Shown here piece after piece: positions 1 through 16,326 of a DNA stretch of 64,000 nt. This stretch comes from an uncultured Microbacterium sp. Its GTDB lineage: Bacteria > Actinomycetota > Actinomycetes > Actinomycetales > Microbacteriaceae. A program made the translations under genes and the position numbers. The stretch is taken from NCBI RefSeq assembly GCF_964244775.1, contig NZ_CAXTJR010000011.1, positions 20,751 through 84,750 on the forward strand. Direction: 5' to 3'. Position 1 is the stretch's first letter, and each line of letters begins with the position of its first letter. The notes under the pieces are model-generated. The model worked only from the letters and a program-made list of their open reading frames with translations. It had not been told where the DNA came from and searched no databases.

Positions 1-820
1 CCGGCAGCCACTCGAGGTACTCCGCCGTGCCCTCGCCGGTGAAGATCGCCGGCAGCGGCGACGGCACCCACGCCGACTCGAGGTTCGCCGACGAGTACGC
101 CTTCGAACCGACGAGAACGAGCCCGAACTCCTCGCCCGCGGCGATCAAGGCGTCCCGCACCTGCTCGCCCTCGGCCCACGGGCCGAACAGCTCGAAGCCG
201 GGCTGCCCGGCCATTCCGTGGCGGAGGGAACGCACCTCGAGGCCATCGATCGTGAAGGCGGCCATGTGGAAGAACTTCGTCGGCGGCACCGGCGCCCCGG
301 TGACCTTCTCCATGAGCGCGAGCGCCCGCGGTCCCTGGATCTCGTAGCGGTATAGGGTGGGGCTCTGCCCGGCCGCCCGCATGAGCGAGTTCGCGTCGCG
401 CTCGAACGTGACGTCGTAGTCACCGGTCTCGCCGATGAACTGCACCCAGTCGAGCACCATGAACCAGCCGACGAGGTCGAACGAGTCCTCTCCGAGATGG
501 AACAGGATCGCATCGCCGATCAGGTAGCCCTCGTGGTTGACGGCGATGAACTGCTTGGCCCGGTCGACCTCGAAGTTCGCGAACGAGTTCACCCCGGTGT
601 CCGAGAGCAAGCGGAGCGCATCGGGTCCGGAGATGAACAGGTCAGTCATGTGGTGCGACTGATCCAGCAGCGCGACCGAGTTGCGCCACGACAGCTGCTC
701 GGAGCGCCAGTTCGTGAACTCGGGCGTGACCGGGAAGATGGTCGGACGAGACTGCGCGTTGCGCAGCACCTCGACGGCGCTTCCCGCACGGGCGATGGCC
801 TGGGCAGCAGACTCTGTCAT
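1..820 (-). CDS. THF-dependent aryl O-demethylase, LigM/DesA-like (aminomethyltransferase fold); N-terminal part only, gene runs off the window edge
   Basis: The reverse frame is open to position 1 and is absent from the ORF track because it has no stop in the window. ATG is at 820 (cat 818-820). My translation MTESAAQAIARAGSAVEVLRNAQSRPTIFPVTPEFTNWRSEQLSWRNSVALLDQSHHM... is colinear with the two full-length paralogs at 885-2285 and 25650-27062. Confidence 0.75.
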   Translation of the reverse strand, partial: MTESAAQAIARAGSAVEVLRNAQSRPTIFPVTPEFTNWRSEQLSWRNSVALLDQSHHMTDLFISGPDALRLLSDTGVNSFANFEVDRAKQFIAVNHEGYLIGDAILFHLGEDSFDLVGWFMVLDWVQFIGETGDYDVTFERDANSLMRAAGQSPTLYRYEIQGPRALALMEKVTGAPVPPTKFFHMAAFTIDGLEVRSLRHGMAGQPGFELFGPWAEGEQVRDALIAAGEEFGLVLVGSKAYSSANLESAWVPSPLPAIFTGEGTAEYLEWLP

Positions 821-839
821 GCGAACTCCTTTTTCAGTT

Positions 840-865
840 GATGCGGATGCCGAGGCATCCGCATC
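840..865 (-). promoter_or_regulatory. Perfect 12-bp inverted repeat (GATGCGGATGCC ga GGCATCCGCATC) between two ligM-like genes; intercistronic stem-loop
   Basis: Read directly from the sequence. It lies in the 64-nt gap between the stop at 885 and the start at 820. No U-tract follows on the transcribed (minus) strand, so a processing or stability element is more likely than a terminator. Confidence 0.4.
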
Positions 866-884
866 CCGCTCACTTCAGGGGGTG

Positions 885-2471
<1,587 letters not shown>

Positions 2472-2498: not shown

Positions 2499-3269
2499 TT
2501 GGCCGACACGCCCCCTTCCCTCTTGGTGGTGAGCGCGCACGCCGGTGATTTCGTGTGGCGCGCAGGCGGGGCGATCGCGGCGGCGACCCTGCGGGGCGAG
2601 CGGGCCACTGTGGTGTGCGTGTCGTACGGCGAGCGCGGCGAGTCGGCCTCGCAGTGGCTGGCGGGCAAGTCGCTCGATGAGATCAAGGCGATCCGTCGCG
2701 ATGAGGCCACGGCTGCAGCATCCGCTCTCGGTGCCGACATCGAATTCCTGGATGCCGGTGACTACCCGCTGCTCGAATCGACCGAGACCGTATCGGCGCT
2801 CGTGGACGTCTACCGCCGCACCCAGCCGACCGTGGTGCTGACCCACCCGCTCGCCGACCCGTACAACGGCGATCACCCGGCCGCCGCGCGGATGGCGCTG
2901 CAGGCACGCGTGCTCGCGCAGGCGATCGGGGTGGCGAACTCCGACGGGTCGTATCCGAAGGTCGATGAGATCATCGGGGCGCCCCCGGTTTTCTTCTTCG
3001 AGCCGCACCAGCCCGAGCAGTCCGACTTCAAGCCGAACGTGCTGCTGGACATCACCGCCGCGTTCGCGCTCAAGCAGAAGGCCATGGAGTGCCTGCCCGC
3101 CCAGAAGCACATGTGGGAGTACTACACCTCTCTCGCGATCCGTCGCGGCGTGCAGGTCAAGCGCAACGCCGGCCCCAACCTCGGCCTCCCGCCCGCAACG
3201 GACGGGTCGCCCACCATGGGCGAGGCGTACCAGCGGTACTACCCGCAGGTCACGGACGTGCTCGCGTGA
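2499..3269 (+). CDS. galB: 4-oxalomesaconate hydratase, GalB-type (PIG-L/LmbE-like zinc hydrolase fold)
   Basis: This is the C-terminal part of the spurious long ORF 681..3269. TTG is at 2499, 5 nt after AGGAGA (2488-2493). The N-terminus LLVVSAHAGDFVWRAGG is an LmbE/PIG-L-type motif. The gene is coupled to galC-like and galD-like genes. Confidence 0.65.
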   Translation: MADTPPSLLVVSAHAGDFVWRAGGAIAAATLRGERATVVCVSYGERGESASQWLAGKSLDEIKAIRRDEATAAASALGADIEFLDAGDYPLLESTETVSALVDVYRRTQPTVVLTHPLADPYNGDHPAAARMALQARVLAQAIGVANSDGSYPKVDEIIGAPPVFFFEPHQPEQSDFKPNVLLDITAAFALKQKAMECLPAQKHMWEYYTSLAIRRGVQVKRNAGPNLGLPPATDGSPTMGEAYQRYYPQVTDVLA

Positions 3270-3979
3270 CCCGCTTCCCGGTCGCCCACGTGGTCGTCAC
3301 CGACATCGCGCGGGCAGACCCCGCCATTGTCGACGCGCTCGCCCAGTACGGCTCGGCGACGGTGCACGAGGCGATGGGCCGGATCGGATACGCAGGCCCC
3401 CGCATCCGGCCGATCCAGCAGGATGCCGCCATCTCAGGCAGCGCGATCACCGTGCGGGTCGCGCCCGGTGACAACCTCATGGTCCACGCGGCGATCGAGC
3501 AGGCGCAGTCCGGCGATGTGATCGTCGTCGTGCCGGTCACGGATGCGCCGTTCGGATTCATCGGCGAACTCATGGCCACCCAGATGCAGGTGCGCGGCGT
3601 CCGCGCCTACGTGACCTCGGGGGGCGTGCGCGACACGCAGGAATTGCGCCGAATGGGGTTCCCGGTGTGGACCGCGCACGTCAGCGCGCAGGGGACGGTG
3701 AAAGACACCGCGGGATCCGTCAACATCTCCGTCGTGCTCGACGGCGTCGTCGTGCACCCCGGCGACATCGTGGTCGCCGACGATGACGGCGTCACGATCG
3801 TTCCGCGCGCCCTCGCGGCCGCGACCCTCGAGGCATCCCGCGCCCGCGCCGCCAAAGAGGCGGCAGGCCGCGCCCGCTACGCCGCCGGCGAGATCTCGAT
3901 GGACCTCAACGGCCTCCGGCCCGTCATCGCCGACCTCGGCGTGAGGTATATGTCACAGGCGGAATACGACGATGAGTGA
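3266..3979 (+). CDS. galC: 4-carboxy-4-hydroxy-2-oxoadipate aldolase / oxaloacetate decarboxylase (RraA-like; GalC/LigK type)
   Basis: GTG at 3266 overlaps the upstream stop (GTGA). The 237-aa product is RraA-like (SATVHEAMGR..., GELMATQMQVRGVRAYVTSGGVRD, DDDGVTIVP). Confidence 0.8.
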   Translation: MTRFPVAHVVVTDIARADPAIVDALAQYGSATVHEAMGRIGYAGPRIRPIQQDAAISGSAITVRVAPGDNLMVHAAIEQAQSGDVIVVVPVTDAPFGFIGELMATQMQVRGVRAYVTSGGVRDTQELRRMGFPVWTAHVSAQGTVKDTAGSVNISVVLDGVVVHPGDIVVADDDGVTIVPRALAAATLEASRARAAKEAAGRARYAAGEISMDLNGLRPVIADLGVRYMSQAEYDDE

Positions 3980-5093
3980 TCCGGTCCGTGACGGCATCCA
4001 CTGCATGATGCTCCGCGGCGGAACGTCGAAGGGCGCCTACTTCCTCGCAGAAGATGTGCCGGCCGACGCGGAGGAACGCGACGACCTCATGCTCCGCATC
4101 ATGGGCAGCCCCGATCCGGCGCAGATCGACGGACTCGGCGGCGCGCACCCCCTCACGAGCAAGGTCGCGATCGTGTCGCGATCGGCCGAGCCCGACGTCG
4201 ACATCGACTACCTGTTCCTGCAGATCGGCGTCGACCAGCCCACCGTGAGCGACGCGCAGACGTGCGGCAACCTCCTGGCGGGGGTCGGTCCGTTCGCGGT
4301 GGAACGCGGCCTCGTCACCGCGGGTGCGACGAGCACCACCGTGCGCATCCGGCTGATCAACACCGGCGACCTCGCGACCGAGACCTTCGCGACATCCGAC
4401 GGCCGGGTGGATTACGACGGGGGTGCGCGCATCGACGGCGTGCCCGGCACCGCAGGCGCGATCCACATCGAGCTCGCCGGTGGGGGGCGACTCCTCCCGA
4501 CCGGCAACGTCGTGGACGAACTCGACGGACACCGGGTCACACTCGTCGACAACGGGATGCCGGTGGCGCTGCTGCGCGCGGACGAGTTCGGCGTGAGCGG
4601 AGACGAGACTCCCGCCGACCTCGAAGAGCGTTCCGACCTCGCCGCGGCCGTCGAGCGTGTGCGGTTGCTGGCCGGCCCCCTCATGGGGCTGGGGGATGTC
4701 GCCGACGCCACGGTTCCGAAGATGTTCCTGCTCTCGCCCGCCCGCGCGGGTGGCGCGATCTCGACCCGCGCCTTCATCCCGGCTCGGGTGCACACGTCGA
4801 TCGGGGTGTTGATGGCGGCATCCGTGGCCGCAGGCATCCGTATCCCTGGAGCTGTCGGCAGCGACCTCGCCTCCGATGCCGGTCGCGATGCCGGTCGTGA
4901 TGCCGGTCGCGATGCCGGTCCGGTCGATATCGAGCATCCGAGCGGCACGTTCCCCGCCCGCGTCCGCGTCGTCCGACGCGACGACGGCACCTGGTCGGCC
5001 ACTTCGACCTCCCTCCGCACCGCCCGCAAGATCTTCGACGGCGTCGTGTTCCCGCGACCGCGCCGCCAGCCCTCAGAGAGGACCGCACGATGA
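3972..5093 (+). CDS. galD: 4-oxalomesaconate tautomerase (PrpF/GalD family)
   Basis: N-terminus MMLRGGTSKGAYF...MGSPDPAQIDGLGGAHPLTSKVAIV is typical of PrpF-family isomerases. The start overlaps the galC-like stop by 8 nt. Confidence 0.75.
   Translation: MSDPVRDGIHCMMLRGGTSKGAYFLAEDVPADAEERDDLMLRIMGSPDPAQIDGLGGAHPLTSKVAIVSRSAEPDVDIDYLFLQIGVDQPTVSDAQTCGNLLAGVGPFAVERGLVTAGATSTTVRIRLINTGDLATETFATSDGRVDYDGGARIDGVPGTAGAIHIELAGGGRLLPTGNVVDELDGHRVTLVDNGMPVALLRADEFGVSGDETPADLEERSDLAAAVERVRLLAGPLMGLGDVADATVPKMFLLSPARAGGAISTRAFIPARVHTSIGVLMAASVAAGIRIPGAVGSDLASDAGRDAGRDAGRDAGPVDIEHPSGTFPARVRVVRRDDGTWSATSTSLRTARKIFDGVVFPRPRRQPSERTAR
4875..4922 (+). repeat. In-frame 12-nt tandem repeat (gatgccggtcgc x4, 3 substitutions in total) encoding DAGRDAGRDAGRDAG inside the galD-like gene
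   Basis: Read directly: units start at 4875, 4887, 4899 and 4911. Confidence 0.95.
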
Positions 5094-6058
5094 CGGATTA
5101 CACCTCGTTCGATGTCGCCCACATCGGCAATATCGAACTGCTCACCCCCACGTTCGACAAGAGCCTCTGGTTCTTCCGGGATCTGCTGGCCATGCGCGTG
5201 GTCGCCGAAGACGGCGACTCGGTGTACCTGCGCACGTGGGACGAGTACCAGCGGTACACGATCAAGCTCACCGCCGCGGGCGCCGGCGGTGTGGGGCGCA
5301 CCACATTCCGCGCCTCCAGTCAGGAGGCCCTGGAGCGACGCGTCGCCGCGATCGACCGGTTCGGTCTCGGCGAGGGGTGGGTCGATGGCGAGCAGGGCAC
5401 CGGCCCCACCTACGCCTTCCGCGACCCTGACGGGCACGCGATGGGCATTTACTACGAGACCGAGCGCTACGTCGCGACCGATGACAAGCCGGCGCTGAAG
5501 AACCAGGCGTCCGCCTTCCCCGGCCGCGGGGTCAACGCGAGGCGGCTCGACCACATCAACTACCTCGCCAAGGATGTGGTCGCCAACGGCGAGTTCATCG
5601 CTCAGGCGCTCGGCGGCCGCGAGAGCGAACGCATCAAGCTCGACACCGCCGAGGGCGAGCCGATCGGCTACGCCGCGTGGTGGTTCCACTTCAACAACAA
5701 GTCGTACGACGTCGTCTACTCCGACGACTGGACCAAGCACGGCGACCGCCTGCATCACATCGCCTTCGCGCCCGACACTCGGGAAGACATCCTCAAGGCC
5801 GCCGACATCTTCCTCGAGAACGGGATCTACATCGAATCGGGCCCGCACAAGCATGCGATCAATCAGACCTTCTTCCTCTACGTGTGGGAGCCGGGCGGCA
5901 ACCGCATCGAATTCGCCAACGCCGGCGCCCGCCTGCTGCTCGATCCCGATCAGCCCGTCGTGGAGTGGACCGCCGAGGAACGCAAGAAGGGCCAGGCGTG
6001 GGGCATGAAGACGATCGAGAGCTTCCACACCCACGGAACCCCGGTGGTGGCGCAATGA
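5090..6058 (+). CDS. Type I (VOC-fold, two-domain) extradiol ring-cleavage dioxygenase
   Basis: 322 aa. There is an ATGA overlap with the galD-like stop. Metal-ligand context is typical of catechol 2,3-dioxygenase-like enzymes (LDHINY, LHHIAF, YVWEPGGNRIEF). Confidence 0.8.
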   Translation: MTDYTSFDVAHIGNIELLTPTFDKSLWFFRDLLAMRVVAEDGDSVYLRTWDEYQRYTIKLTAAGAGGVGRTTFRASSQEALERRVAAIDRFGLGEGWVDGEQGTGPTYAFRDPDGHAMGIYYETERYVATDDKPALKNQASAFPGRGVNARRLDHINYLAKDVVANGEFIAQALGGRESERIKLDTAEGEPIGYAAWWFHFNNKSYDVVYSDDWTKHGDRLHHIAFAPDTREDILKAADIFLENGIYIESGPHKHAINQTFFLYVWEPGGNRIEFANAGARLLLDPDQPVVEWTAEERKKGQAWGMKTIESFHTHGTPVVAQ

Positions 6059-6094
6059 GCTCCGCAGACGAGGCGCTCCCCGGCAGCAGAACGG

Positions 6095-6125
6095 GTTTAC
6101 AAGTAAACACACCTGGACGTACACT
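6095..6125 (+). promoter_or_regulatory. Perfect 14-bp palindrome GTTTACAAGTAAAC overlapping a candidate promoter TTTACA-N18-TACACT upstream of the aldehyde dehydrogenase gene
   Basis: The palindrome is at 6095-6108 and the identical 14-mer recurs at 23022-23035. The -35-like hexamer is at 6096-6101 and the -10-like TACACT at 6120-6125. It lies in the 145-nt gap between the dioxygenase and ALDH genes. Confidence 0.45.
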
Positions 6126-6203
6126 CGTGACGGGTGCGCAGTCGCTCCCGTCGCGCGGATGCCCGAAGCAATCAGTGCAAACACAGAGAGGTGCTTGATC
6201 TTC

Positions 6204-7691
6204 ATGAGTGGAACGTTGGAGTCGGTCCGTACCGGACTGTACATCGGAGGCGAGGAGCGCTTCACGGACGCCACCCTCGAGGTCGTCGACCCGGGCAAGC
6301 CAGGCGTCATCGTCGGGCACGCCGCAGCCGCGAGCGCGCAGGACGTCGACGACGCGATCGCCGCCGCGAAGGGTGCTTATCCGGCATGGTCGGCCCTTTC
6401 CGCGACCGAGCGCGCGGCGAAGATGACCGAGGCGATCGCCGGCATCGCCGATGACCGCGATGAGGATGCCGCGATCCTGTCGCAGGAGAACGGCAAGATC
6501 CGCTTCGAGTCGTGGATCGACGCCCTGGTGTTCGAGATCCGCTGGAACCTCGCGCTGATGATCGCCGACGAGGTCGACACGGGCAAGGTCCTCCCTGTCG
6601 CCCCCGGTATCCCCGTCGAGACGACGGTCACCTACCAGTCGCTGGGCGTGGTCACCGTGATCGTGCCCTTCAACTGGCCGATCGCGATCCTCGGCGCCGC
6701 CCTCCCGCACGCCCTGCTCGCGGGCAACACGGCGATCGTCAAGCCACCGCCGTCGGCGCCGCTGGCCACCACCCGGTTCGTGCAGCGCCTCGCCGCGAAG
6801 CTGCCCGCCGGCGTGCTCAACGTCGTCACGGGCAAGGACGCCGACATGGCGGCCCTGATCTCGAGCGACGACATCGCGAAGGTCTGCTTCACCGGTTCGG
6901 TGGGCGGCGGCAAGCGCATCATGGAGATGGCGTCGAAGTCGCTGACCCGCGTCACCCTGGAGCTCGGCGGCAACGACGCGGCGATCCTCCTCGAAGACGC
7001 GATCCTCGACGACGTGCACCTCGACCGCCTTTTCGCCGCCGTGTTCGACAGCACGGGGCAGATCTGCATGAATGCGAAGCGGCTGTACGTGCACCGCTCG
7101 CGCCTCGACGAGGTGGTCGACGGTATCGCCGCGCGCCTGCAGAAGACCGTGATCGGCTACGGCCTCGACGAGGGCACGACGATGGGCCCCCTGCACTCGC
7201 CCGTGCAGAAGGCGTTCGTCGCCGACATCATCCAGGAGGCGAAGGATGCCGGTGCCGACGTCCGCGAGTACGGCGAGCTGCCGGGTGGCGACCTGGCGGG
7301 CGGAAACTTCCTGCGCCCCGCGATCGTGGTCGACCCCGACCCGTCGCTGCGCGTGGTCACGCAGGAGCAGTTCGGTCCCGTCATCCCGATCATCCCCTTC
7401 GACACCGAGGACGAGGCGATTGCGGCCGCCAACGACACGTGGGCGGGTCTCGGCGGGTCGGTCTGGACGGCGGACGTGGATGCTGCCAACCGCGTCGGCG
7501 GCAAGCTCGAGTGCGGGTATGTCTGGGTCAACGACCACGGAGCCACCCGCCTCGACCTGCGCGCGCCGTTCGGCGGGATGAAGCAGTCGGGCTTCGGACG
7601 CGAGCAGGGGATCGAAGGCATCCGCGCGTTCCAGGACACGCGCTCCATCGCCCACATCGACGCGGCGGCACTGGCCGCGCAGGCGCACTGA
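6204..7691 (+). CDS. NAD(P)+-dependent aldehyde dehydrogenase (ALDH superfamily)
   Basis: ORF trimmed to ATG 6204 (MSGTLESVRTGLYIGG). The catalytic context is ELGGND and STGQICMNAKR. Confidence 0.85.
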   Translation: MSGTLESVRTGLYIGGEERFTDATLEVVDPGKPGVIVGHAAAASAQDVDDAIAAAKGAYPAWSALSATERAAKMTEAIAGIADDRDEDAAILSQENGKIRFESWIDALVFEIRWNLALMIADEVDTGKVLPVAPGIPVETTVTYQSLGVVTVIVPFNWPIAILGAALPHALLAGNTAIVKPPPSAPLATTRFVQRLAAKLPAGVLNVVTGKDADMAALISSDDIAKVCFTGSVGGGKRIMEMASKSLTRVTLELGGNDAAILLEDAILDDVHLDRLFAAVFDSTGQICMNAKRLYVHRSRLDEVVDGIAARLQKTVIGYGLDEGTTMGPLHSPVQKAFVADIIQEAKDAGADVREYGELPGGDLAGGNFLRPAIVVDPDPSLRVVTQEQFGPVIPIIPFDTEDEAIAAANDTWAGLGGSVWTADVDAANRVGGKLECGYVWVNDHGATRLDLRAPFGGMKQSGFGREQGIEGIRAFQDTRSIAHIDAAALAAQAH

Positions 7692-7707
7692 CGATCCCCG
7701 TCGTCAT

Positions 7708-7776
7708 CCGAGAAACCACATCCCGGTCGAGACATCACGCATTGCGTGGTGTCTCGGCACGGATGTGGTTTCTCGG
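7708..7776. repeat. 69-bp near-perfect palindrome (16-bp outer arms CCGAGAAACCACATCC/GGATGTGGTTTCTCGG plus 14-bp inner arms) between the ALDH and MFS genes
   Basis: Read directly. Outer arms are 7708-7723 and 7761-7776. Inner arms are 7728-7741 and 7743-7756, with one G.T position. No T-tract follows. Confidence 0.9.
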
Positions 7777-7800
7777 CGTGCGCCATGCGGGAGCGAGCCG

Positions 7801-9024
7801 ATGAATGCGCCGACGCCGACAGCATCCCGCTGGCTTCTCGGCGTCGCGGTGCTGCTCATCGCGCTCAACCTGCGCCCCACGATCACCGGAGTCGGACCGC
7901 TGCTCTCGCAGATCTCGGCGACGCTCGGCACGACCGAAGCGGCGCTGGGTGCACTGGCCGCCGTCCCGCTGATCGCTTTCGCGGTCGTCTCGCCCCTCGC
8001 TCACGGGCTGAGCGCCCGGTTCGGCATCCCCCGCACCGTGCTGTGGTCGCTGCTCTTGCTCGGCGTCGGCACGGTCGTGCGCTCTCTTCCGGGTTTCGCG
8101 GCGAACCTGTGGGTGGGTACCGCGCTGATCGGAGCATCCATCGCCATCGTGAACGTCCTCATGCCGGCCGTGATCAAGCGCGATTTCGCCGACCGGGTGC
8201 CGGCGATGACAGCCGTCTTCACCGCGTGCCTGTCGGGGATGGGCGCCGTGGCCTCGGGCGTGGTCGTGCCGATCTCGCTCATCGAGGTGAACGGAGCGGC
8301 GCTCGGCTGGCAGGTGGCGCTGGTGTGGACCGGAGCCCTGCTCCCCTTCGCCCTCGGCGCATGGGTCGCCTCGATGCGCCGGCAGCCGCGGCACGAGAAG
8401 CCGACCGAGCGCTCCGGTGCCACCGGCATCTGGCGCGACCGGCTCGCGTGGCAGGTCCTTCTCTACATGGGACTGCAGTCGATGACCTTCTACATGCTGG
8501 TCACCTGGTTGGCCCCCATCGCGCAGTCGCTCGGGCGCAGTGAGGTCGTCGCCGGCATCGACGTCATGATCTACCAGCTGTTCTGCTTCGGCGGCTCGCT
8601 CATCGTGCCGCTGATCCTTCGCGGGCGATTCCGTCGATTCGCGGCGGCCTTCGTCCCCGCGGTCACACTCATCGGCATTGCGGGGCTCATCGCGCTTCCC
8701 GAGCTCTTCACGCTGTGGGCGGTGCTCTGCGGAATCGGATGCGGTGCGGCGCTGGGCATGGCACTGAGCCTGTTCAGCCTTCGCGCGCGCACGCACCACG
8801 CCGCCGGCGCCCTCTCCGGCATGGCGCAGTCCGGCGGGTATCTCATCGCCGCCACCGGTCCGATCCTCTTCGGCGCGCTCGTGACCTGGAGCGGCGGATG
8901 GCTCGCCTCGCTGATCCTGGTCGCGCTGGTGCTCATCGGGCAGCTCGTGACCGGGCTGTTCGTCGGGCGCGACCGGTTCGTGCTGGAGCGGGCGTACTCG
9001 TCGCCGCCCGCCCGTCGGCCGTGA
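7801..9024 (+). CDS. MFS transporter (CynX/YeaN-like family)
   Basis: ATG is at 7801 (MNAPTPTASRWLLGVAVLLIALNLRP...). About 12 hydrophobic segments are visible in the translation. Confidence 0.8.
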   Translation: MNAPTPTASRWLLGVAVLLIALNLRPTITGVGPLLSQISATLGTTEAALGALAAVPLIAFAVVSPLAHGLSARFGIPRTVLWSLLLLGVGTVVRSLPGFAANLWVGTALIGASIAIVNVLMPAVIKRDFADRVPAMTAVFTACLSGMGAVASGVVVPISLIEVNGAALGWQVALVWTGALLPFALGAWVASMRRQPRHEKPTERSGATGIWRDRLAWQVLLYMGLQSMTFYMLVTWLAPIAQSLGRSEVVAGIDVMIYQLFCFGGSLIVPLILRGRFRRFAAAFVPAVTLIGIAGLIALPELFTLWAVLCGIGCGAALGMALSLFSLRARTHHAAGALSGMAQSGGYLIAATGPILFGALVTWSGGWLASLILVALVLIGQLVTGLFVGRDRFVLERAYSSPPARRP

Positions 9025-9040: not shown

Positions 9041-9982
9041 TCACAACTCGAGGACGAGCCGCTCTCCGACGCATCGCGAGACGCAGATCATCATGACCTC
9101 CGACTCCTCCCTCTCCTTCGCGCTCAGCACGGCGTCGCGGTGGTCGGGCTGTCCTTCCAGCACGAACGTCTCGCAGGTGCCGCAGGTTCCGCCGCGGCAC
9201 GACGACGGAGCCGGCACGCCGGCCTCGGCAACCCGATCGAGGATCGATTCGCCCGGCAGGATCGTCAGCGTGGTGCCGGTGATCGACAGTTCCACGTCGA
9301 ACGGCTGATCCGTGGCATCCACCAGAATGGTGTCGTTGGTGAACCGCTCGACGTGCAGCGCGACATCCGTCCCCGCCACCTCCCGCTCGAGCGCATCGAG
9401 CAGGCGGGAAGGTCCGCACGCATACACGACGGCCCCGGCGGCCTCGTGGACGATGCCGGTCAGCGCCATGCGCTCTCCCTCCGCGCTCACGTATACCCGC
9501 ACCTTGTCGCCGTACCGCGCCAGGTCGGCGCCGAAGGCCATCCTCGACGGCTCGCGGCCGGCATAGTGCAATCGCCAGTCGGCACCGGATGCCTCGGCCG
9601 CCGCGATCATCGGCAGGATCGGCGTTATCCCGATCCCGCCGGCGACGAAGACCATCCGCGGAGCGATCTCGTACCCGAACAGATCGCGGGGCGGCGAGAC
9701 CCGCACGAGCTGGCCCGTGCGGACGTGCGCGTGGAGGTGGCGGCTCCCGCCGAGCCCCTCGTCCTCCCGCAGGACCGCGATCCGATAGGTCGAGCGATCG
9801 GCGGGGTCACCGCAGAGGGAGTACTGGCGGACGAGCCCAGGCTCGCCCGGCCGGTCGATGTGCACATCGATGTGGGCACCTGGCTGCCACTCCGGCAGCG
9901 GCGTGCCCTGCGGGTTGGTCAGCACGAGGCCGGCCACCCCGCTCGCCTCGTCGATGCGCGACGCGACCTGCAGCGTGAGCAT
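9041..9982 (-). CDS. Phthalate-dioxygenase-reductase/VanB-type oxidoreductase (flavin + NAD + C-terminal 2Fe-2S domains)
   Basis: ORF trimmed to MLTLQVASR (cat 9980-9982). Motifs are RQYSL, GGIGITP and CRGGTCGTCE. The start overlaps the DAK stop (TGATG). Confidence 0.85.
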   Translation of the reverse strand: MLTLQVASRIDEASGVAGLVLTNPQGTPLPEWQPGAHIDVHIDRPGEPGLVRQYSLCGDPADRSTYRIAVLREDEGLGGSRHLHAHVRTGQLVRVSPPRDLFGYEIAPRMVFVAGGIGITPILPMIAAAEASGADWRLHYAGREPSRMAFGADLARYGDKVRVYVSAEGERMALTGIVHEAAGAVVYACGPSRLLDALEREVAGTDVALHVERFTNDTILVDATDQPFDVELSITGTTLTILPGESILDRVAEAGVPAPSSCRGGTCGTCETFVLEGQPDHRDAVLSAKEREESEVMMICVSRCVGERLVLEL

Positions 9983-11706
9983 CAGCGCTCCTCTCCCGCG
10001 AGCGCCTGGGCGACCGCGTCGAACTGCAGCGCGATGGCCACCGCTCCCGGGTCGGGAATGCCGACCGCACGCGCCCCGAGGTAGCTGCTGCGACCGAGGC
10101 TCGGGGTGAGCGCCGAGGTCGACTCGGCTCCGGCGTGGGCGGCCCGGGCAGCTCGGCGGGCGCGCTCTGCCCCCGAGGCTCCGTCGGCGGCCCTCAGCGC
10201 ATCGACGGCCGGCTGGAGCGCATCGATCATCGTGCTGTCTCCCGGGGCGGCGCCCCCCACCGACCGCACCCGCGCGCAGCCGGTGGTCACCGCCGCCGAC
10301 CACTCGTCTGCGGTCAGCGACTCCCCGAGACCGGTGACCGCTTCGGCCATGGCCAGCAGGAGGAGGCTGTACAGCGGGCCGGAGGTACCGCCCACCTCGC
10401 GCCGGACGATTTCAGCGACCGCGGTCAGGTAGCGCGCCGTGCCGCGGTGCGCGAGAAGCAGATCGGATGCTGCGACCATTGCTGCGGCGCCACGGGCGAG
10501 GTTCGTCCCGAGGTCTCCGTCACCGACCTGACGGTCGAGGTCGGTCAGCCGCTCCTCCGCGTCGATCAGCGCATGCGCGATCGTCGCGCCGACGGCGTGC
10601 GTGGCCGCGACGTGCGCCGAAACGGCGCCGGTGGCCGGCTCGGACGTCGGGTCGTCGTGTGTCGCCGGGGCGGGCACGACCGTCACCCGGTCGGGGTCCA
10701 GCTGGGGCGTCGACCTCGGGAAGGCCGCGACGAGGGCCACGTCTCCGAGCAGTTCGAGCAGCTCGTCATCGATCGCAGCGACGGTCAGCGATGCGCCGGG
10801 CATGTCGAGGGAGGTGAGGAAGGGCCCTGCCCACGTCATCCGAACGCGGAGGCCGCGCTCGGCGAGCGCGGCGAGCACGTCTGACTGCAGGATCCGCAGA
10901 TCGAGGTCGGGGGTGCCACCCAGCGAATTGACGAGCGCCACGACCTCGGTGCCGGGCGCGAGGTCGCGGTCGGCGACGATCACCTCCACCAGGCGCCGAG
11001 CGATCTGCGCAGAGGGAACGAGCGCACCCAGTTCGACGCCCGCTTCACCGTGGATGCCCAGACCCCATTCGATCTCCGATGCGTCGAGGCTGAAGTTGGG
11101 CGCATCGGAGCCGGGCAGGTAACAGGGCCCGAGCGCGACCCCCATGGTCGCGGCGCCGCCGAGGAAGCGCTCGACGGTCTCGACGATGCGCCCCAGCGTC
11201 CATCCCCGCTCCGCGGCGGCCCCCGCGATCTTGTGGACGAGCACCGTGGCGGTCAGGCCCCGGCGACCGGCACGGGACGCGTCGCCCAGCGCCGCGTCGT
11301 CCGCGACGACCACCATCTCGACCGGGATGCCGGCGGCACGGGCCATCTCGGCAGCCAGGCCGAAGTTCAACCGGTCGCCGGTGTAGTTCTTGACGATCAG
11401 CAGCACACCGGCGCTCGTCGCCGACGCGAGGATCGCCGCGAACACCGCATCGACGGAGGGCGACGTGAAGATCGGCCCCAGGACGGCGGCATCCAGCATC
11501 CCGGTCCCGACGTACCCGGCATGCGCGGGCTCGTTCCCGGATCCGCCGCCCGACACCACGGCGACACGGTCGGCGGGCTTGCGGGATCCCGGAGAGCGGA
11601 CGACGATCGGGAGTCCGTCCACGCGCGCGAGGTGCGGGGTGCCGGCGACCAGTCCGGCGATGTAGTCCTCGACGACCACATCCGGAGCGTTGATGATCTT
11701 CTTCAT
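9982..11706 (-). CDS. Dihydroxyacetone kinase family protein, fused DhaK-DhaL (ATP-dependent DAK/ketose kinase type)
   Basis: 574 aa. The N-terminus is MKKIINAPDVVVEDYIAGL... with GGGSGNEPAHAGYVG and VKNYTGDRLNF. The C-terminal DhaL-like half contains DRQVGDGDLGTN. Confidence 0.85.
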   Translation of the reverse strand: MKKIINAPDVVVEDYIAGLVAGTPHLARVDGLPIVVRSPGSRKPADRVAVVSGGGSGNEPAHAGYVGTGMLDAAVLGPIFTSPSVDAVFAAILASATSAGVLLIVKNYTGDRLNFGLAAEMARAAGIPVEMVVVADDAALGDASRAGRRGLTATVLVHKIAGAAAERGWTLGRIVETVERFLGGAATMGVALGPCYLPGSDAPNFSLDASEIEWGLGIHGEAGVELGALVPSAQIARRLVEVIVADRDLAPGTEVVALVNSLGGTPDLDLRILQSDVLAALAERGLRVRMTWAGPFLTSLDMPGASLTVAAIDDELLELLGDVALVAAFPRSTPQLDPDRVTVVPAPATHDDPTSEPATGAVSAHVAATHAVGATIAHALIDAEERLTDLDRQVGDGDLGTNLARGAAAMVAASDLLLAHRGTARYLTAVAEIVRREVGGTSGPLYSLLLLAMAEAVTGLGESLTADEWSAAVTTGCARVRSVGGAAPGDSTMIDALQPAVDALRAADGASGAERARRAARAAHAGAESTSALTPSLGRSSYLGARAVGIPDPGAVAIALQFDAVAQALAGEER

Positions 11707-11730
11707 GGCGCGAGGCGATCTCTCGAACGG

Positions 11731-12933
11731 CTATCGGAGGGTCACGCGAACGGGCAGCGCTTCGAAGCCGCGGAGCCAGTTGGAGTAGAACGGGACCGGC
11801 TCTCCGGCGAGCTCGATGGTCTGGACGCGCCGGGCGAGGGCCGAGAGCAGACACGACGCCTCCATGCGCGCCATCATCTGACCGACGCAGCCGTGGATGC
11901 CGGTGCCGAAGGCCAGGTGGCCGCTCGCATCGCGGGTGATGTCGTACTCATCCGGGTCGGTCCACCGTCGCGGGTCGCGGTTGGCAGCGCCCAGCGCCAT
12001 GATGACCTTCTCTCCCTCCCCGATCGAGGTGCCCGCGAGGTCGGTCGCGCACGCCGTCGTGCGCCCGATGTACGGGCTCGGCGGATTCCAGCGCAGTGCC
12101 TCCTCGAACGCCTTCCGTGCGAGCGCCGGATCGTCGCGCAGCGCCGACCATGCGTCCGGGTTCTCGGCGAGCGCTTTGAGGGCGAACTGGATGCCGAACA
12201 CGGTGGTGTCGATGCCCGCCGACAGAAACGTCCGCACCAGCATCCCCGCGTCTTCCTCGCTGATCTCACCTGCGTCCACGTACCCGTAGATCGTCTGGCC
12301 GAGGCCGCCCGGCGCGAGCGCGTCGCGACGCATCTGCCAGTTCACGAACGCGGATGCCTCCTCCGCGGCAGCGACAGCGGCGTCGTAGAACTCGTTGTGC
12401 GGCCCCATCGCCTGGAAGTTCAGGTTCGAGTACGGCAGCAGGTGCCGACGGCCTTCCGGCGCCACGCCGACGGCGTCGGGGAGAACCGTCAGCGGGAACG
12501 TCTCGGCGAGGTCGGCCGCGTCGAACTCACCTGCGCCCACGACCGAGTCCACGAGGTCGTCGGCCTGCCGTTGGAAGTCTTCGGTGAGTCGGCGCACGAC
12601 GCGCTGACTGAGGATCGAGGTCATCACCCGGCGGTACTTCGTGTGCCCGGGCGGATCGTTCTCGAGGATCACGCTGGGCGTCCGCCAGTTCTCGGACTTC
12701 TTGGTGTTGGTGAGCCCCGTGCCCGCGGACGACTCGAAGGTCTCGTAGTCACGGAAGACCTGCTCGACGATCTCGTGGCGTCCGGTGAACCAGACCCCGT
12801 ACTGCGGGCTCCACACCACGGCGGCCGTCTCGCGGATCGCGGTGTCGACGGCGGTCGGGTCGCTCAGCCCCGCACGGGAGAAGGGATCGACCCCCAGGAT
12901 CGCGGGGCCGCGCACGGCGGTGGGTCGGCTCAT
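11731..12933 (-). CDS. Cytochrome P450, CYP199-like (para-methoxybenzoate-type O-demethylase candidate)
   Basis: Heme loop is FGTGIHGCVGQ and ExxR is EEALRW. The C-terminal stretch SALARRVQTIELAGEPVPFYSNWLRGFEALPVRV resembles my recollection of CYP199A4. GAGGGAG lies upstream of ATG 12933. Confidence 0.85.
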   Translation of the reverse strand: MSRPTAVRGPAILGVDPFSRAGLSDPTAVDTAIRETAAVVWSPQYGVWFTGRHEIVEQVFRDYETFESSAGTGLTNTKKSENWRTPSVILENDPPGHTKYRRVMTSILSQRVVRRLTEDFQRQADDLVDSVVGAGEFDAADLAETFPLTVLPDAVGVAPEGRRHLLPYSNLNFQAMGPHNEFYDAAVAAAEEASAFVNWQMRRDALAPGGLGQTIYGYVDAGEISEEDAGMLVRTFLSAGIDTTVFGIQFALKALAENPDAWSALRDDPALARKAFEEALRWNPPSPYIGRTTACATDLAGTSIGEGEKVIMALGAANRDPRRWTDPDEYDITRDASGHLAFGTGIHGCVGQMMARMEASCLLSALARRVQTIELAGEPVPFYSNWLRGFEALPVRVTLR

Positions 12934-12966
12934 GATGAACTCCCTCTTTCGATCGCCGGGCGAACG

Positions 12967-14466
12967 CTAAAGCGGGTACTGTCCCGGCTCGCGGCGCATC
13001 GTGATCCACCGGGTGTCGGTGAACGCGTCGATGTTGGCCTGCGCTCCCCCGTGGCGCGACCCCGTGCCCGACGAGCCGGTGCCGCCGAACGGGGCGTTGG
13101 CCTCGTCGTTGACCGTCTGATCGTTGATGTGCACGATCCCGGTCGGGATGCGCTGGGCGAGGGCGAGCCCCGCGAACACGTCGGCGGTGACGATTCCGAG
13201 CGCGAGTCCGTACTCGGTGTCGGCGGCGAGGGCGGCGGCTTCGTCGTCGGTGGCGAAGGAGACGACCGATGCCACGGGGCCGAAGACCTCTTCGGCGTAG
13301 GCCGTGGCATCCTTCGGCGTGTTCGCCAGCACGGTCGGACGATAGAAGAGCTGGTCGTAGGTTCCGCCTGCGCGGAGCTCGGCGCCTTGCGCGACAGCAT
13401 CCTGCACGAGGGTGTGTACACGATCGCGCTGCACCTCGTCGATCAGCGGCCCGAGATGCACCTGGCCGGCCGCGGGGTCGCCGACGTGCATCGATTCGGC
13501 CTTCGCCGCGAGCTTGGTGACGTACTCGTCGAAGAGCGACTCGTGCACGATGTGCCGGCCGACGGTCATGCAGATCTGGCCCTGGTGCAGGAACGAGCCC
13601 CACGTCGCCAGGTTGACGGCCTTGTCGACATCGGCGTCGGCGCGGATGATGTACGCCGAGTTGCCGCCGAGCTCGAGGTGCACGCGGGTCAGGTGGCGCG
13701 CCGCGACCTCGCCGACAGCGCGACCGGCCCGAGTGGATCCGGTGAATGCGACGACACGGACTCGCGGGTCTGCGACGATCGCCTCGCCGACATCGGCGCC
13801 GCCGGGTACGAGCTGCAGCAGCCCGGCCGGCAGGCCCGCCTCCTGGAAGATCCGCACGAACGACACTCCGCCGGTGATGACCGTGCGCGGGTCGGGCTTG
13901 AGCAGCACGGCGTTGCCGAGCGCGAGCGCCGGCGCCACGGCGCGGATCGCGAGGATCAGGGGCACGTTGAACGGTGCGATGACGCCGACGACGCCGACGG
14001 GAACCTGCTGAGCGAGCGAGAGTCGCGGTTCTTCGCTGGCCAGGATGGATCCGAGCGGTGCCGACGGCAGCGCGGCGGCCTCATAGGTCTCGGCGGCCGT
14101 CACGTGCAGCGCGAAGCCGGCGAGCGGCGGGATCGCCCCGACCTCACGGATGTTCCAGCCGCCGATCTCGTCGGCGTACTGCTCCCACAGCTGGCCGGCC
14201 TTGCGCAGGACCGCGGCGCGGGCGGGGTGCGGCAGGGCTGCCCACTCCTTCTGCGCCCGCGCCGCGCCCTCCGCAGCGCGCGCGACATCCGCGGGATCCG
14301 CAATGCCCACCATCGCGAGCGTCTCGCCCGTCGCGGGCTCGACCGAGGCGACCTCGCCGCCGCCTCCGACGACCCATTCGCCGTCGATGAAGATCTTGCC
14401 GGCGAACACCGCCGGGTCGATCAGCGTGTCGGTCATGGTGTCTTTCGTCTGGATCGCGGTGCTCAT
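12967..14466 (-). CDS. Aryl-aldehyde (benzaldehyde/vanillin-type) dehydrogenase, ALDH superfamily
   Basis: 499 aa. AAGGAG lies 6 nt upstream of ATG 14466. Motifs are ELGGNS and HQGQICMTVGR. Confidence 0.85.
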   Translation of the reverse strand: MSTAIQTKDTMTDTLIDPAVFAGKIFIDGEWVVGGGGEVASVEPATGETLAMVGIADPADVARAAEGAARAQKEWAALPHPARAAVLRKAGQLWEQYADEIGGWNIREVGAIPPLAGFALHVTAAETYEAAALPSAPLGSILASEEPRLSLAQQVPVGVVGVIAPFNVPLILAIRAVAPALALGNAVLLKPDPRTVITGGVSFVRIFQEAGLPAGLLQLVPGGADVGEAIVADPRVRVVAFTGSTRAGRAVGEVAARHLTRVHLELGGNSAYIIRADADVDKAVNLATWGSFLHQGQICMTVGRHIVHESLFDEYVTKLAAKAESMHVGDPAAGQVHLGPLIDEVQRDRVHTLVQDAVAQGAELRAGGTYDQLFYRPTVLANTPKDATAYAEEVFGPVASVVSFATDDEAAALAADTEYGLALGIVTADVFAGLALAQRIPTGIVHINDQTVNDEANAPFGGTGSSGTGSRHGGAQANIDAFTDTRWITMRREPGQYPL

Positions 14467-14508
14467 GAGGACTCCTTCGTCGGATGCTGTCGGGGATGTT
14501 CGTGGGGT

Positions 14509-15435
14509 TCAGGCTGAGGTGCTGCGGGCGAGCCGCTGCGCGCGGCGCCCGACCGTACTGGCGGTCCAGCCGCGCTGGATGACCCGCATCGCGTCGGCCG
14601 TCAGCTCGGCTCCATCGTCATACGGTGAGCGCCAGATGGCCAGCATGTCGGCGGCCGGCGCGGGCAGCACCGAGCGCGAGAACGCCTCGACGCCCCACCG
14701 CCCTGCGTAGCCGTCGTCGAGCGCGGACCGGACGATGTCGGCGACGTCCACGGCGCCGGTGCTCAGCATCCCCCGCCCCGACTGACCCAGCTCGAGGTAG
14801 GCGAGCTTCGGAAGGGCGAGCCGGACGGCAGCAGCGATGTCGGCTTCTTCGATCGCCATATGGAAGGTGTCGAGATGGATGCTGAGATTGGCCGACCCGC
14901 TCAGCTCGACGAACGCCAGAGCCTGCGCCGCGGTGTTCAGAAGGGAGGTCTCGTAGCGGTTGAGCACCTCGAACGTCATCGTGATGCCGCGATCGTGGGC
15001 GTAATCGGCGACCGCGCCCACCTCGCGAGCAGCGCGCTCCACCGCCGCCGGCGAGGTCGGGCCGCCCGGCGCCCCGAAGGGTCCGTACGGCACGCCGTTC
15101 ATCTGATCACCGCCGAGTTCGACCGTCAGATCGACGACGGCGCGCAGGAGTGCTGCGCCTGCCGCACGCTCGGCCGCGTCAGCCGACGACACGTCCGCCG
15201 CCCCCGCCTGTCCGCCGGCGATCGTGATGGGTGCGACGGCCCGGTCGGCGAAGATGCGGCGAAGGGTCGCAGCATCCGTCGCCGCAGGGTCCAGCGGAGG
15301 CAGGACCACCCGCGAGTAGCCCTGCGCCGCGAGCACCTCGAGCGCGGAGGCCAGGGCGGTCGGCGTCGCGTCGGGCAGCAGCACGTTGATGTGTGCGGCC
15401 ACATCAAGGTGCGGAATGAGCGATTCGAGTGTCAT
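14509..15435 (-). CDS. Xylose-isomerase-like TIM-barrel protein (ketose 3-epimerase / sugar-phosphate isomerase family)
   Basis: 308 aa. FEVLNRYETSLLNTAAQALAFVE and HLDTFHM resemble tagatose/psicose 3-epimerase motifs. Confidence 0.7.
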   Translation of the reverse strand: MTLESLIPHLDVAAHINVLLPDATPTALASALEVLAAQGYSRVVLPPLDPAATDAATLRRIFADRAVAPITIAGGQAGAADVSSADAAERAAGAALLRAVVDLTVELGGDQMNGVPYGPFGAPGGPTSPAAVERAAREVGAVADYAHDRGITMTFEVLNRYETSLLNTAAQALAFVELSGSANLSIHLDTFHMAIEEADIAAAVRLALPKLAYLELGQSGRGMLSTGAVDVADIVRSALDDGYAGRWGVEAFSRSVLPAPAADMLAIWRSPYDDGAELTADAMRVIQRGWTASTVGRRAQRLARSTSA

Positions 15436-15448
15436 GCGCGTGCTCGGG

Positions 15449-16231
15449 TCAGAACGTCGGCAGGTCGAGGCGCTGCTTGTATGCCGAATAGCCGTCGTCC
15501 ACGTGCACGACCGTTCCGTTGATCACGTTGGATTCGTCGGAGGCGAGGAAGGCGACCACGTCGGCGATCTCCTCCGGAGCGGTCATCTTGCCCCGCAGCT
15601 GCTCGGACGCGAACAGCGCGCGGAGTTCTTCGCTGAACTGGTTGATGATCGGCGTCGACACGCGCCCGGGGGTGATCGCGACGGCGCGGACGCCGAATTC
15701 GGCGAGTTCGTACGCCGCCGATCGGGTGAAGGAGATCACGGCGGCCTTCGCGGCACTGTAGGTGAACGAGAGCTCGGCGGCCTGCTCGCCATAGATCGAC
15801 GAGGTGCTGATGATGACGCCGCCGGTGCCCTGGTCGCGGAACTGCCGGCCCGCGGCGAGGATGCCGTAGTACACGCCGTCCTGGTCGATGCGGATGAGGG
15901 GGGCGTAGTCGACCTCGGGGTCGTGGTCGAGCAGGGGCTTGCCGCCCGCGATGCCCGCATTGTTGAAGATCACGTCGAGCTTTCCGAAGACCGAGACCGC
16001 GCGCGCCACCGCCGCCTCGACCTCGCTGAACACCGCGACGTTCACGCCGACCGCGGCGACGCTGCCCTCGAAGCCCTCGCCCGAGATCTCGTCAGCGGCG
16101 GCCTGCGCCTGACCCAGGTTGATGTCGGCGATCATGACCTTGGCGCCCTCGCGGACGAACTTCCGTACCGTGGCGAGACCGATACCGCTTGCTCCGCCGG
16201 TGATGAGCGCGACTTTCCCGTCGAGACGCAT
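15449..16231 (-). CDS. Short-chain dehydrogenase/reductase (SDR)
   Basis: TGGASGIG, NNAG and YSAAK motifs. Confidence 0.85.
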   Translation of the reverse strand: MRLDGKVALITGGASGIGLATVRKFVREGAKVMIADINLGQAQAAADEISGEGFEGSVAAVGVNVAVFSEVEAAVARAVSVFGKLDVIFNNAGIAGGKPLLDHDPEVDYAPLIRIDQDGVYYGILAAGRQFRDQGTGGVIISTSSIYGEQAAELSFTYSAAKAAVISFTRSAAYELAEFGVRAVAITPGRVSTPIINQFSEELRALFASEQLRGKMTAPEEIADVVAFLASDESNVINGTVVHVDDGYSAYKQRLDLPTF

Positions 16232-16306: not shown

Positions 16307-16326
16307 CCCACCGGTGTTGCAGAAGG

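Follow-up and report, generated by a model that had tools for sequence, protein, structure and literature searches.

A putative VOC-fold gallate dioxygenase in a 4-oxalomesaconate pathway operon of an uncultured Microbacterium sp.

Introduction

Carbon from lignin and tannins is funnelled through gallate, syringate and protocatechuate as central compounds. In the gallate pathway of Pseudomonas putida KT2440, ring cleavage gives 4-oxalomesaconate (OMA) directly, and the lower enzymes are a hydratase of the PIG-L fold (GalB), an aldolase of the RraA fold and a tautomerase of the PrpF fold. The same lower enzymes, with the same folds, are encoded by an operon at positions 2499-6058 of a 64,000-nucleotide stretch of DNA from an uncultured Microbacterium sp. 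(contig NZ_CAXTJR010000011.1), the whole of which is called the window in the following. The ring-cleaving enzymes differ: strain KT2440 uses GalA, a LigB-fold (type II) dioxygenase, whereas the operon in the window encodes a two-domain VOC (type I) extradiol dioxygenase. The KT2440 cluster also carries genes for a gallate transporter, a porin and a regulator, in place of which the cluster in the window features tetrahydrofolate (THF)-dependent demethylases. We consider it probable, though by no means certain, that the window harbours a self-sufficient operon for the conversion of gallate to pyruvate and oxaloacetate, in which a VOC-fold gallate dioxygenase opens the ring and demethylases provide the substrate from syringate.

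The second well-described system is that of Sphingobium sp. SYK-6 (DesA, LigM, DesB/DesZ/LigAB, LigC, LigI, LigU, LigJ, LigK, MetF/LigH). Demethylases of the DesA and LigM types, a methylenetetrahydrofolate reductase (MTHFR), a formyl-THF deformylase and enzymes of the LigU and LigK types are common to this strain and the window. Unlike in SYK-6, a LigB-fold dioxygenase, LigC and LigI are absent from the open reading frames (ORFs) scanned in the window, and the hydratase is of the GalB type rather than the LigJ type. In relatives of the locus in Corynebacterium and Brevibacterium, the position of the hydratase is taken by an Amidohydro_2 protein. To our knowledge, every published route to OMA starts with a LigB-fold dioxygenase.

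Among VOC-fold enzymes, the closest published relative of the dioxygenase in the window is AphC, the 4-alkylcatechol 2,3-dioxygenase of Rhodococcus jostii RHA1 (PDB 7q2a, 3lm4; PMC9062432). Both share about 35% identity, the two-domain fold, the His/His/Glu metal ligands and the residues His249 and Tyr258 of AphC, and both would act on 4-substituted catechols, as we propose for the enzyme in the window. The catechol 2,3-dioxygenase AHK27425.1 of Rhodococcus opacus PD630, also of the VOC fold, is required for gallate consumption; the authors did not identify the product and suggested 2,3-cleavage instead of OMA formation (PMC8442903). We found no other precedent of a type I enzyme that acts on gallate. 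The reported ligand numbering of AHK27425.1 (His158, His221 and Glu272) fits the spacing in AphC, so that this enzyme is probably of the AphC kind and probably lies outside the subfamily described here. A third comparison is offered by homoprotocatechuate degradation, in which the VOC dioxygenase HPCD/MndD and the aldehyde dehydrogenase (ALDH) HpaE serve as a model for type I cleavage of a carboxylated catechol followed by ALDH action on an open-chain semialdehyde. However, HPCD is only about 26% identical to the dioxygenase in the window, the downstream enzymes are entirely different and the ALDH in the window scores below the cutoff of the HpaE family. BLC23O of Bacillus ligniniphilus (PMC9925492) was considered as a possible instance of the same enzyme and rejected; with 283 aa, it is a different one. 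In our literature search, no publication was found to describe a gallate or protocatechuate 4,5-dioxygenase of the VOC fold that belongs to this subfamily.

Operon structure and gene identities

Identities of the ORFs in the window were obtained by searches against Pfam, NCBIfam and solved structures (PDB). The operon comprises four genes:

2499-3269, plus strand: GalB-type OMA / 4-carboxy-2-hydroxymuconate hydratase, PIG-L fold (PF02585; E 2.7e-73 to P. putida GalB, PDB 5cgz)
3266-3979, plus strand: GalC/LigK CHA aldolase (CHA, 4-carboxy-4-hydroxy-2-oxoadipate) / oxaloacetate decarboxylase, RraA-like (NF006731, 284 bits, cutoff 179; E 9.5e-67 to PDB 3noj)
3972-5093, plus strand: GalD/LigU OMA tautomerase, PrpF fold (NF033377, 435.8 bits, just below the cutoff of 440; E 4e-101 to LigU, PDB 6p3j)
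5090-6058, plus strand: two-domain type I (VOC) extradiol dioxygenase of 322 aa (PF00903; TIGR03211, 293.9 bits, below the cutoff of 320.2)

The galB-type gene starts with TTG at 2499, with the motif AGGAG located 5' of the start codon. Reading of the sequence showed that galB and galC overlap by GTGA (3266-3269), galC and galD by 8 nt (3972-3979), and galD and the dioxygenase gene by ATGA (5090-5093), a pattern predicting that the genes at 2499-6058 are a single translationally coupled operon. The lower pathway from OMA is complete, with the tautomerase, the hydratase and the CHA aldolase all encoded between 2499 and 5093. Domains, structures and sequence reading thus bear out the original prediction, which had placed galB-, galC- and galD-like genes and a 322-aa VOC dioxygenase here with these same overlaps. 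The G + C content of the window is about 68%. Its dioxygenase is 95% identical to the counterpart in Microbacterium rhizomatis JCM 30598, which identifies the source as a close Microbacterium relative. Fragments of the region were found in only three soil-metagenome DNA runs and no RNA runs were among them.

Essentially all sizeable ORFs of the window, apart from a few short ones, were scanned for the canonical ring-cleavage families, and none matched PF02900 (LigB), PF01408 (Gfo/Idh/MocA) or PF04909 (Amidohydro_2). The dioxygenase at 5090-6058 itself does not match PF02900 either, and it is the sole ring-cleavage enzyme among the scanned ORFs. LigC and LigI catalyse the canonical upper steps of protocatechuate 4,5-cleavage, and their families were likewise not found in the window. 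That the LigB, LigC and LigI folds do not occur in the window had also been stated in the original prediction.

Properties of the dioxygenase

The enzyme has the two-domain VOC fold, as judged from PF00903 and from an AlphaFold model (pTM 0.85), for which Foldseek gave TM scores of 0.87 to AphC and of 0.78-0.83 to XylE and HPCD. The closest solved structure is PDB 9wgj (E 1.4e-101, about 50% identity), followed by AphC of R. jostii RHA1 (E 1e-56) and then by MndD and HPCD. The entry 9wgj, which is absent from the fold library used (ending April 2026), represents a member of the same subfamily, with Tyr206, Arg298, Gln302, Trp304 and His313 all present. Its recent deposition suggests that someone is working on this subfamily.

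Residues described for AphC (PMC9062432) were mapped onto the dioxygenase, in the case of position 206 with three independent alignments. The metal triad H155/H223/E274 is retained, aligned with AphC and HPCD, as are His255 and Tyr264 (His249 and Tyr258 in AphC); all five residues are invariant in the subfamily. The second-sphere acid/base histidine (His200 of HPCD and AphC), by contrast, is replaced by Tyr206 (SYD in place of GHE/VHD), and tyrosine was found in 22/22 subfamily members. His200 of HPCD is the best-studied catalytic position of extradiol dioxygenases, and we know of no characterised type I extradiol enzyme that does without this histidine. The residues Met205, Leu296 and Phe309, which line the alkyl pocket of AphC, correspond to Ser211, Gln302 and His313, and the pocket also gains the invariant Arg298 and Lys307. 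The 22 sequences compared, which come from Actinomycetota, Alpha- and Gammaproteobacteria and Thermus and include 9wgj, all have Tyr206, Arg298, Gln302, Trp304 and His313. Because of this invariant pattern, the dioxygenase is assigned, on its residues, to a discrete type I subfamily with a polar, basic pocket. The predicted pocket for the 4-substituent (Arg298, Gln302, Lys307 and His313) fits a carboxylated catechol.

The best NCBIfam model for the enzyme is that of catechol 2,3-dioxygenase (TIGR03211) and databases name its relatives accordingly, so that it might be an ordinary catechol or alkylcatechol 2,3-dioxygenase whose location beside genes of OMA metabolism is meaningless. We consider this highly improbable. 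The score stays below the cutoff of that model, the pocket and catalytic residues are unlike those of AphC, and the start codon of the gene overlaps the stop codon of galD. Furthermore, the hydrolase, tautomerase and decarboxylase of the catechol meta-cleavage pathway are not encoded nearby; the setting is that of OMA metabolism rather than of alkylcatechol meta-cleavage, and it is kept across Actinomycetota, Proteobacteria and Thermus.

Genomic context of the dioxygenase subfamily

We collected 80 genome loci around relatives of the dioxygenase and located the proteins of the window on each of them; the counts of adjacent genes given here and below refer to the 73 loci (Micrococcales) with sufficient flanking sequence. 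GalD adjoins the dioxygenase in 66 of the 73, and GalB, GalC and GalD together lie directly 5' of it in 61/73. This gene order is far from chance. A partnership with the OMA pathway was also observed in Agrobacterium, Thioclava, Roseibium and Thermus. The original prediction of a type I dioxygenase that takes the place of LigAB or GalA and feeds GalD, GalB and GalC is thereby strengthened, the linkage being kept in Actinomycetota, Alphaproteobacteria, Gammaproteobacteria and Thermus.

Farther relatives retain the link with the OMA pathway but differ in accessory genes, and several of their clusters lack an ALDH as well as LigC and LigI. A locus labelled Corynebacterium glutamicum at NCBI encodes a GntR regulator and an aromatic-acid MFS transporter, followed by the tautomerase, an Amidohydro_2 protein at the position of LigJ, LigK and the VOC enzyme. 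In the clusters of Brevibacterium and Brachybacterium, one LigM-type gene with MTHFR and PurU genes is added, while a metagenome-assembled genome (MAG) of Propionibacteriales has a TRAP transporter in its cluster. The same VOC/OMA pattern, again free of ALDH, LigC and LigI, was found in Thioclava, Methylobacterium and Agrobacterium vitis. On the pAt plasmid of an Agrobacterium tumefaciens strain from walnut, such a cluster is directly followed on its 3' side by a tannase gene (PF07519, 438 bits).

In other lineages, an ALDH is present. The plasmid pTHEOS01 of Thermus oshimai encodes a member of the subfamily (53% identity) together with PobA, a PIG-L hydratase, an aldolase and an HpaE-like ALDH, which is only 30% identical to the ALDH in the window. 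The operon of Roseibium includes a third, unrelated ALDH. In Sinomonas, the genes for the VOC enzyme and the ALDH stay joined even where GalBCD are not encoded nearby.

Some further genes were observed in or beside clusters of this kind. A plasmid of Roseomonas gilardii (locus L090, 7411-9963) carries consecutive genes for a LigB-type dioxygenase, an alpha/beta hydrolase and an enzyme of the VOC subfamily; the hydrolase and VOC genes overlap at the start of the latter, VanA/VanB-like genes are located nearby, and both dioxygenase folds thus occur in one cluster. A DUF1932 / NAD_binding_2 protein resembling 6-phosphogluconate dehydrogenase recurs beside VOC/OMA clusters in Proteobacteria and Thermus (L091, 2414-3301; L097, 1382-2266; L099, 6846-7904; L100, 6161-7003; L096, 11855-12622) and also adjoins LigC-LigAB in Nitratireductor (L094). 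DUF6282 genes lie in or beside the clusters of Thermus oshimai (L096, 9588-10508) and of the Propionibacteriales MAG (L089, 16204-17181). The DUF6282 protein was tried as an analogue of LigI; no solved structure proved to be related to it, and a faint match to a TIM barrel (AP_endonuc_2) was obtained.

Proposed pathway from gallate

Cleavage next to the 3,4-diol gives OMA directly from gallate only, while protocatechuate would give 4-carboxy-2-hydroxymuconate semialdehyde (CHMS). Since many clusters of the subfamily are devoid of ALDH, LigC and LigI, and one of them is located beside a tannase gene, conversion of gallate to OMA without an aldehyde intermediate is the simplest reading. On the same grounds, namely clusters without any further enzyme and the tannase neighbour, we infer that the VOC enzyme may function as a gallate dioxygenase. 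The subfamily would then, again in the simplest reading, stand in for GalA, DesB and LigAB, which have the LigB fold, by non-orthologous replacement. Accordingly described, this is a known pathway with a ring-opening enzyme of a different fold, a swap that recurs in Actinomycetota, Proteobacteria and Thermus and for which we found no describing paper.

In the proposed sequence of reactions, the VOC dioxygenase would bind the 3,4-diol of gallate and cleave the C4-C5 bond to give OMA, which is a tricarboxylate; no aldehyde would be formed because C5 of gallate carries a hydroxyl group. GalD would interconvert the tautomers of OMA, GalB would hydrate OMA to CHA and GalC would split the latter into pyruvate and oxaloacetate. 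Gallate would be obtained from syringate by the DesA-like and LigM-like THF-dependent demethylases, with MTHFR and PurU recycling methyl-THF. The ALDH of this organism would not be needed for the route. Substrate, regiochemistry, metal and regulation are the deduced parts of this proposal, whose observed parts are the gene identities, overlaps, synteny and residue pattern.

A number of points weigh against this assignment. We found no published activity for any enzyme of the subfamily, and the substrate is deduced from context. The absence of canonical ring-cleavage enzymes covers the window, and galA, ligAB or pcaGH could lie elsewhere in the genome. In the structural model, the C-terminal lid that carries Gln302 to His313 has low confidence, and the geometry of the pocket is a predicted one. 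The structure 9wgj was deposited as 'Catechol 1,2-dioxygenase', a name that is at odds with its extradiol fold, and no paper on it was found. In the Thermus cluster, the subfamily is accompanied by PobA, whose product is protocatechuate and not gallate. Finally, the ALDH gene of Micrococcaceae is co-operonic with the dioxygenase gene at every one of the loci described below, which gallate cleavage alone does not explain.

An alternative substrate is 3-O-methylgallate, which the DesA-like demethylase would produce. The VOC enzyme could cleave it as DesZ does, and the methyl-ester product would reach OMA by means of an esterase or cyclise spontaneously to 2-pyrone-4,6-dicarboxylate (PDC). The alpha/beta hydrolase gene that overlaps the start of the VOC gene in Roseomonas would be in line with this. 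However, neither an esterase nor a PDC hydrolase (Amidohydro_2) was detected in the scanned ORFs of the window or in most clusters, LigM-type enzymes that would take off the second methyl group are present, and the clusters with a tannase or without any demethylase point to gallate itself. This substrate therefore appears improbable to us.

The aldehyde dehydrogenase

The region 3' of the operon in the window contains the following features:

6095-6108, plus strand: perfect palindrome GTTTACAAGTAAAC, located over the -35 element of a promoter-like site (6096-6125) 5' of the ALDH gene; predicted, probable MarR-type operator
6204-7691, plus strand: ALDH-superfamily dehydrogenase of an uncharacterised subfamily (PF00171, 410 bits; no NCBIfam equivalog at cutoff)
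7708-7776, plus strand: terminator-like hairpin with 34-bp arms (dG -64.8 kcal/mol, z -10.3; 0/200 shuffles fold as well)
7765-9024, plus strand: MFS transporter of the CynX/NimT family (PF07690; TIGR00896, 297 bits, below the cutoff of 406)
23022-23035, plus strand: GTTTACAAGTAAAC again, in the gap that separates the MarR gene from the transketolase cluster (minus strand)
23060-23662, plus strand: MarR-family regulator (PF12802)

The ORF of the ALDH is open from 6159, but the likely start is ATG 6204 (ribosome-binding site GAGAGG), the database protein (P0121) being 495 aa long. With this start, the gap between the dioxygenase and ALDH genes amounts to 145 nt. The catalytic motifs ELGG and GQIC are present. 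An inverted repeat (88% complementary) forms the hairpin between the ALDH stop codon and the MFS gene; the first start codon of the latter falls inside the 3' arm, and translation possibly starts near 7801. The original prediction that an ALDH and an MFS transporter follow the operon is correct as to the presence of both genes, while the start of the ALDH had to be moved to 6204 and the hairpin with its 34-bp arms separates the two.

The copy of GTTTACAAGTAAAC at 23022-23035 is the sole second one of this 14-mer in the window, against 0.11 matches expected by chance. Variants occur in the MarR/transketolase regions of Microbacterium album and Microbacterium lushaniae and 5' of the ALDH gene of M. 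rhizomatis. The palindrome is thus probably a MarR operator that links the ALDH to the sugar-like cluster. Because of its own promoter-like site, the MarR-type operator and the hairpin 3' of the gene, the ALDH of the window is assigned to a separate, separately regulated stand-alone unit that is accessory to the operon. The sugar-like cluster itself (9041-23023, minus strand) is an insertion that separates the ALDH-MFS unit from the MTHFR-LigM unit. Its genes code for a Fer2/NAD-binding reductase, a DhaK/DhaL kinase, a cytochrome P450, a second ALDH, a xylose-isomerase-like TIM barrel, a short-chain dehydrogenase/reductase, a sugar ABC transporter, a zinc-dependent alcohol dehydrogenase and a split transketolase. 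We take it to resemble catabolic clusters for branched pentoses or tetritols, with an added P450 system.

Comparison with other genomes revealed two different situations. Whereas the ALDH adjoins the dioxygenase in 37/73 loci, it does so in only 5 of 29 loci within Microbacterium. M. lemovicicum has the gene order GalBCD-VOC-ALDH-MFS. In Microbacterium cx-55, the ALDH orthologue is located 15 kb from the dioxygenase and a hairpin precedes the MTHFR gene. In M. album, GTTTACAGCTAAAC occurs in the MarR/transketolase region and the ALDH orthologue (80% identity) lies at the end of the transketolase cluster; in M. lushaniae, that cluster is followed by ATTTACAAGTAAAC and then by overlapping ALDH and MarR genes and MTHFR. 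Within Microbacterium, the putative operator is hence conserved, and the ALDH takes different positions with respect to the dioxygenase.

In Arthrobacter, Pseudarthrobacter and Sinomonas, the ALDH orthologue is found directly 3' of the dioxygenase in 20/20 loci, with gaps of 11-100 nt, and a PadR-type palindrome (CCTAT-N4-ATAGG) comes only after it. The position of this palindrome makes the ALDH the final member of the GalBCD-VOC operon in these Micrococcaceae genera. That it might be the first gene of a PadR-controlled demethylase operon is ruled out for Micrococcaceae for the same reason. A position after an extradiol dioxygenase is the classical one of a semialdehyde dehydrogenase.

These observations bear on a model that develops the original prediction. 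In this model, the VOC enzyme would act chiefly on protocatechuate, as a 4,5-dioxygenase, LigM-type enzymes would make protocatechuate from vanillate, and the ALDH would replace LigC and LigI so that PDC is bypassed. The invariable ALDH position in the three Micrococcaceae genera speaks for it, as do the VOC-ALDH pair of Sinomonas, the joint occurrence of PobA, VOC enzyme, HpaE-like ALDH, PIG-L hydratase and aldolase in Thermus oshimai, the third ALDH type of Roseibium and the two LigM-type genes in the window. On the other hand, the conserved core occurs without an ALDH in many lineages, the ALDH changes its position within Microbacterium (cx-55, M. album and M. lushaniae), and the ALDH of the window shares its operator with the sugar-like cluster and is followed by a hairpin. 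The bypass of PDC is accordingly backed only in part, by Micrococcaceae, Thermus and Roseibium, but not by those clusters that have the core alone or by the separate ALDH unit of the window.

The sequence of the ALDH is similarly ambivalent. AMSDH has two carboxylate-binding arginines, Arg120 and Arg464. An arginine of the ALDH aligns with Arg464 across a 2-residue insertion (motif ATRLDLRAPFGG), and XylC does not have this arginine; at the position of Arg120, however, the ALDH has Val, and a conserved Arg follows four residues further on. Of the NCBIfam models for ring-fission semialdehyde dehydrogenases, none reached its cutoff, neither TIGR03216 (HMSDH/AMSDH; 279 vs 693 bits) nor HpaE (TIGR02299; 277 vs 638 bits). 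By hidden Markov model scores, the protein lies about equally far from the dehydrogenases for betaine aldehyde, succinate semialdehyde, phenylacetaldehyde and muconate semialdehyde. The closest relatives that are not orthologues (43-49% identity) are encoded in other contexts, either beside an aerobic reductive dehalogenase for 3,5-dibromo-4-hydroxybenzoate or in an alcohol/ketone oxidation cluster, and the cluster of one of them also includes LigC. Such contexts would fit an aromatic-aldehyde dehydrogenase equally well. The protein may thus be a CHMS dehydrogenase or a dehydrogenase for aromatic or other aldehydes.

Taken together, we regard a mainly protocatechuate-cleaving enzyme with an ALDH bypass as unlikely. 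Gallate cleavage and a protocatechuate route are compatible if the enzyme, like LigAB, accepts both substrates. That unrelated ALDHs were recruited repeatedly suggests aldehyde formation by some members of the subfamily, and those members would cleave protocatechuate. As a tentative and rather doubtful extension, the enzyme could be a dual gallate/protocatechuate 4,5-dioxygenase with Tyr in place of the acid/base His. The lineages with an ALDH (Micrococcaceae, this organism, Thermus and Roseibium) would then oxidise open-chain CHMS directly to OMA, in a pathway without PDC, LigC and LigI that was assembled independently with at least three unrelated ALDHs.

Demethylase genes and flanking regions

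For the preferred reading, in which gallate is the substrate and derives from syringate, the demethylase and C1-recycling genes on both sides of the operon are relevant:

2-874, minus strand: THF-dependent aryl O-demethylase, DesA-like (syringate type), truncated at the edge of the window (PF01571; NF047633 DesA 371 bits vs LigM 338 bits, for the partial protein)
885-2306, minus strand: LigM-like vanillate/3-O-methylgallate O-demethylase, divergent from the operon (NF047885, 910.8 bits, cutoff 580)
2307-2498, no strand assigned: divergent intergenic region with a predicted promoter-like site for the demethylase (2356-2328, minus strand; consensus scan)
23739-23752, plus strand: palindrome CCTATGGCTATAGG, 5' of the MTHFR gene; predicted, probable PadR operator
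23793-27735, plus strand: C1-recycling/demethylase unit, consisting of the next four genes
23793-24689, plus strand: MTHFR-like protein (PF02219)
24690-25586, plus strand: PurU (PF00551 and ACT; TIGR00655, 355.6 bits)
25587-27062, plus strand: second LigM-like demethylase, 19 kb downstream of the operon (PF01571; NF047885, 867.8 bits, cutoff 580)
27136-27735, plus strand: PadR regulator (PF03551)

Both full-length demethylase genes exceed the cutoff of the LigM equivalog for THF-dependent O-demethylases, while the truncated gene scores best with the DesA model and, as a partial protein, does not attain the cutoff. The ORF of the first LigM-like gene is open to 2447; its likely start is an ATG near 2306, and residue 59 of the long ORF is the first one covered by the family alignment. 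Three GCV_T genes are present in the window, as expected from the original prediction of three LigM-like demethylases next door, but one of them is DesA-like and cut, and just one of the two LigM-like genes adjoins the operon. Just 5' of the MTHFR-PurU-LigM-PadR unit, the window has the motif CCTAT-N4-ATAGG; 20 related loci (among L010-L084) have this motif too, most of them at the corresponding place.

The genes at 27732-35546 (beta-lactamase-like protein, M13 peptidase, MatE, Nramp and iron-dependent repressor) are ordered as in Microbacterium sp. cx-55 (L083). With the order of the flank in common, the region 6059-27735, from the dioxygenase to the beta-lactamase-like gene, can be regarded as variable cargo. 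Farther downstream, a 1259-aa ORF (40794-44573, minus strand) with faint fn3 and invasin matches contains a 330-nt tandem repeat (41369-43759; 7.2 copies, 75% matches). Seven consecutive plus-strand ORFs of about 108 aa (41905-44172) with high third-position G + C content are most likely shadows of this repeat protein and were not retained as genes. A gene for a type III polyketide synthase (57415-58614) is grouped with those for an FAD monooxygenase (59219-60496) and, on the minus strand, a UbiA prenyltransferase (60625-61530); they may be a small gene set for a phenolic lipid or a prenylated polyketide.

Significance

Since the published OMA routes all begin with a LigB-fold enzyme, genome surveys based on ligAB, galA or desB will miss the carriers of the VOC-type system, which include many soil Micrococcales, plasmids of plant-associated Agrobacterium and Rhizobium, and Thermus. 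The compact four-gene cassette from a Gram-positive bacterium would be useful for engineering the conversion of syringyl lignin. If the ALDH branch is real, formation of the polymer precursor PDC could also be controlled through it. The invariant exchange of His for Tyr provides a natural test of alternative O2 activation and proton delivery in extradiol dioxygenases.

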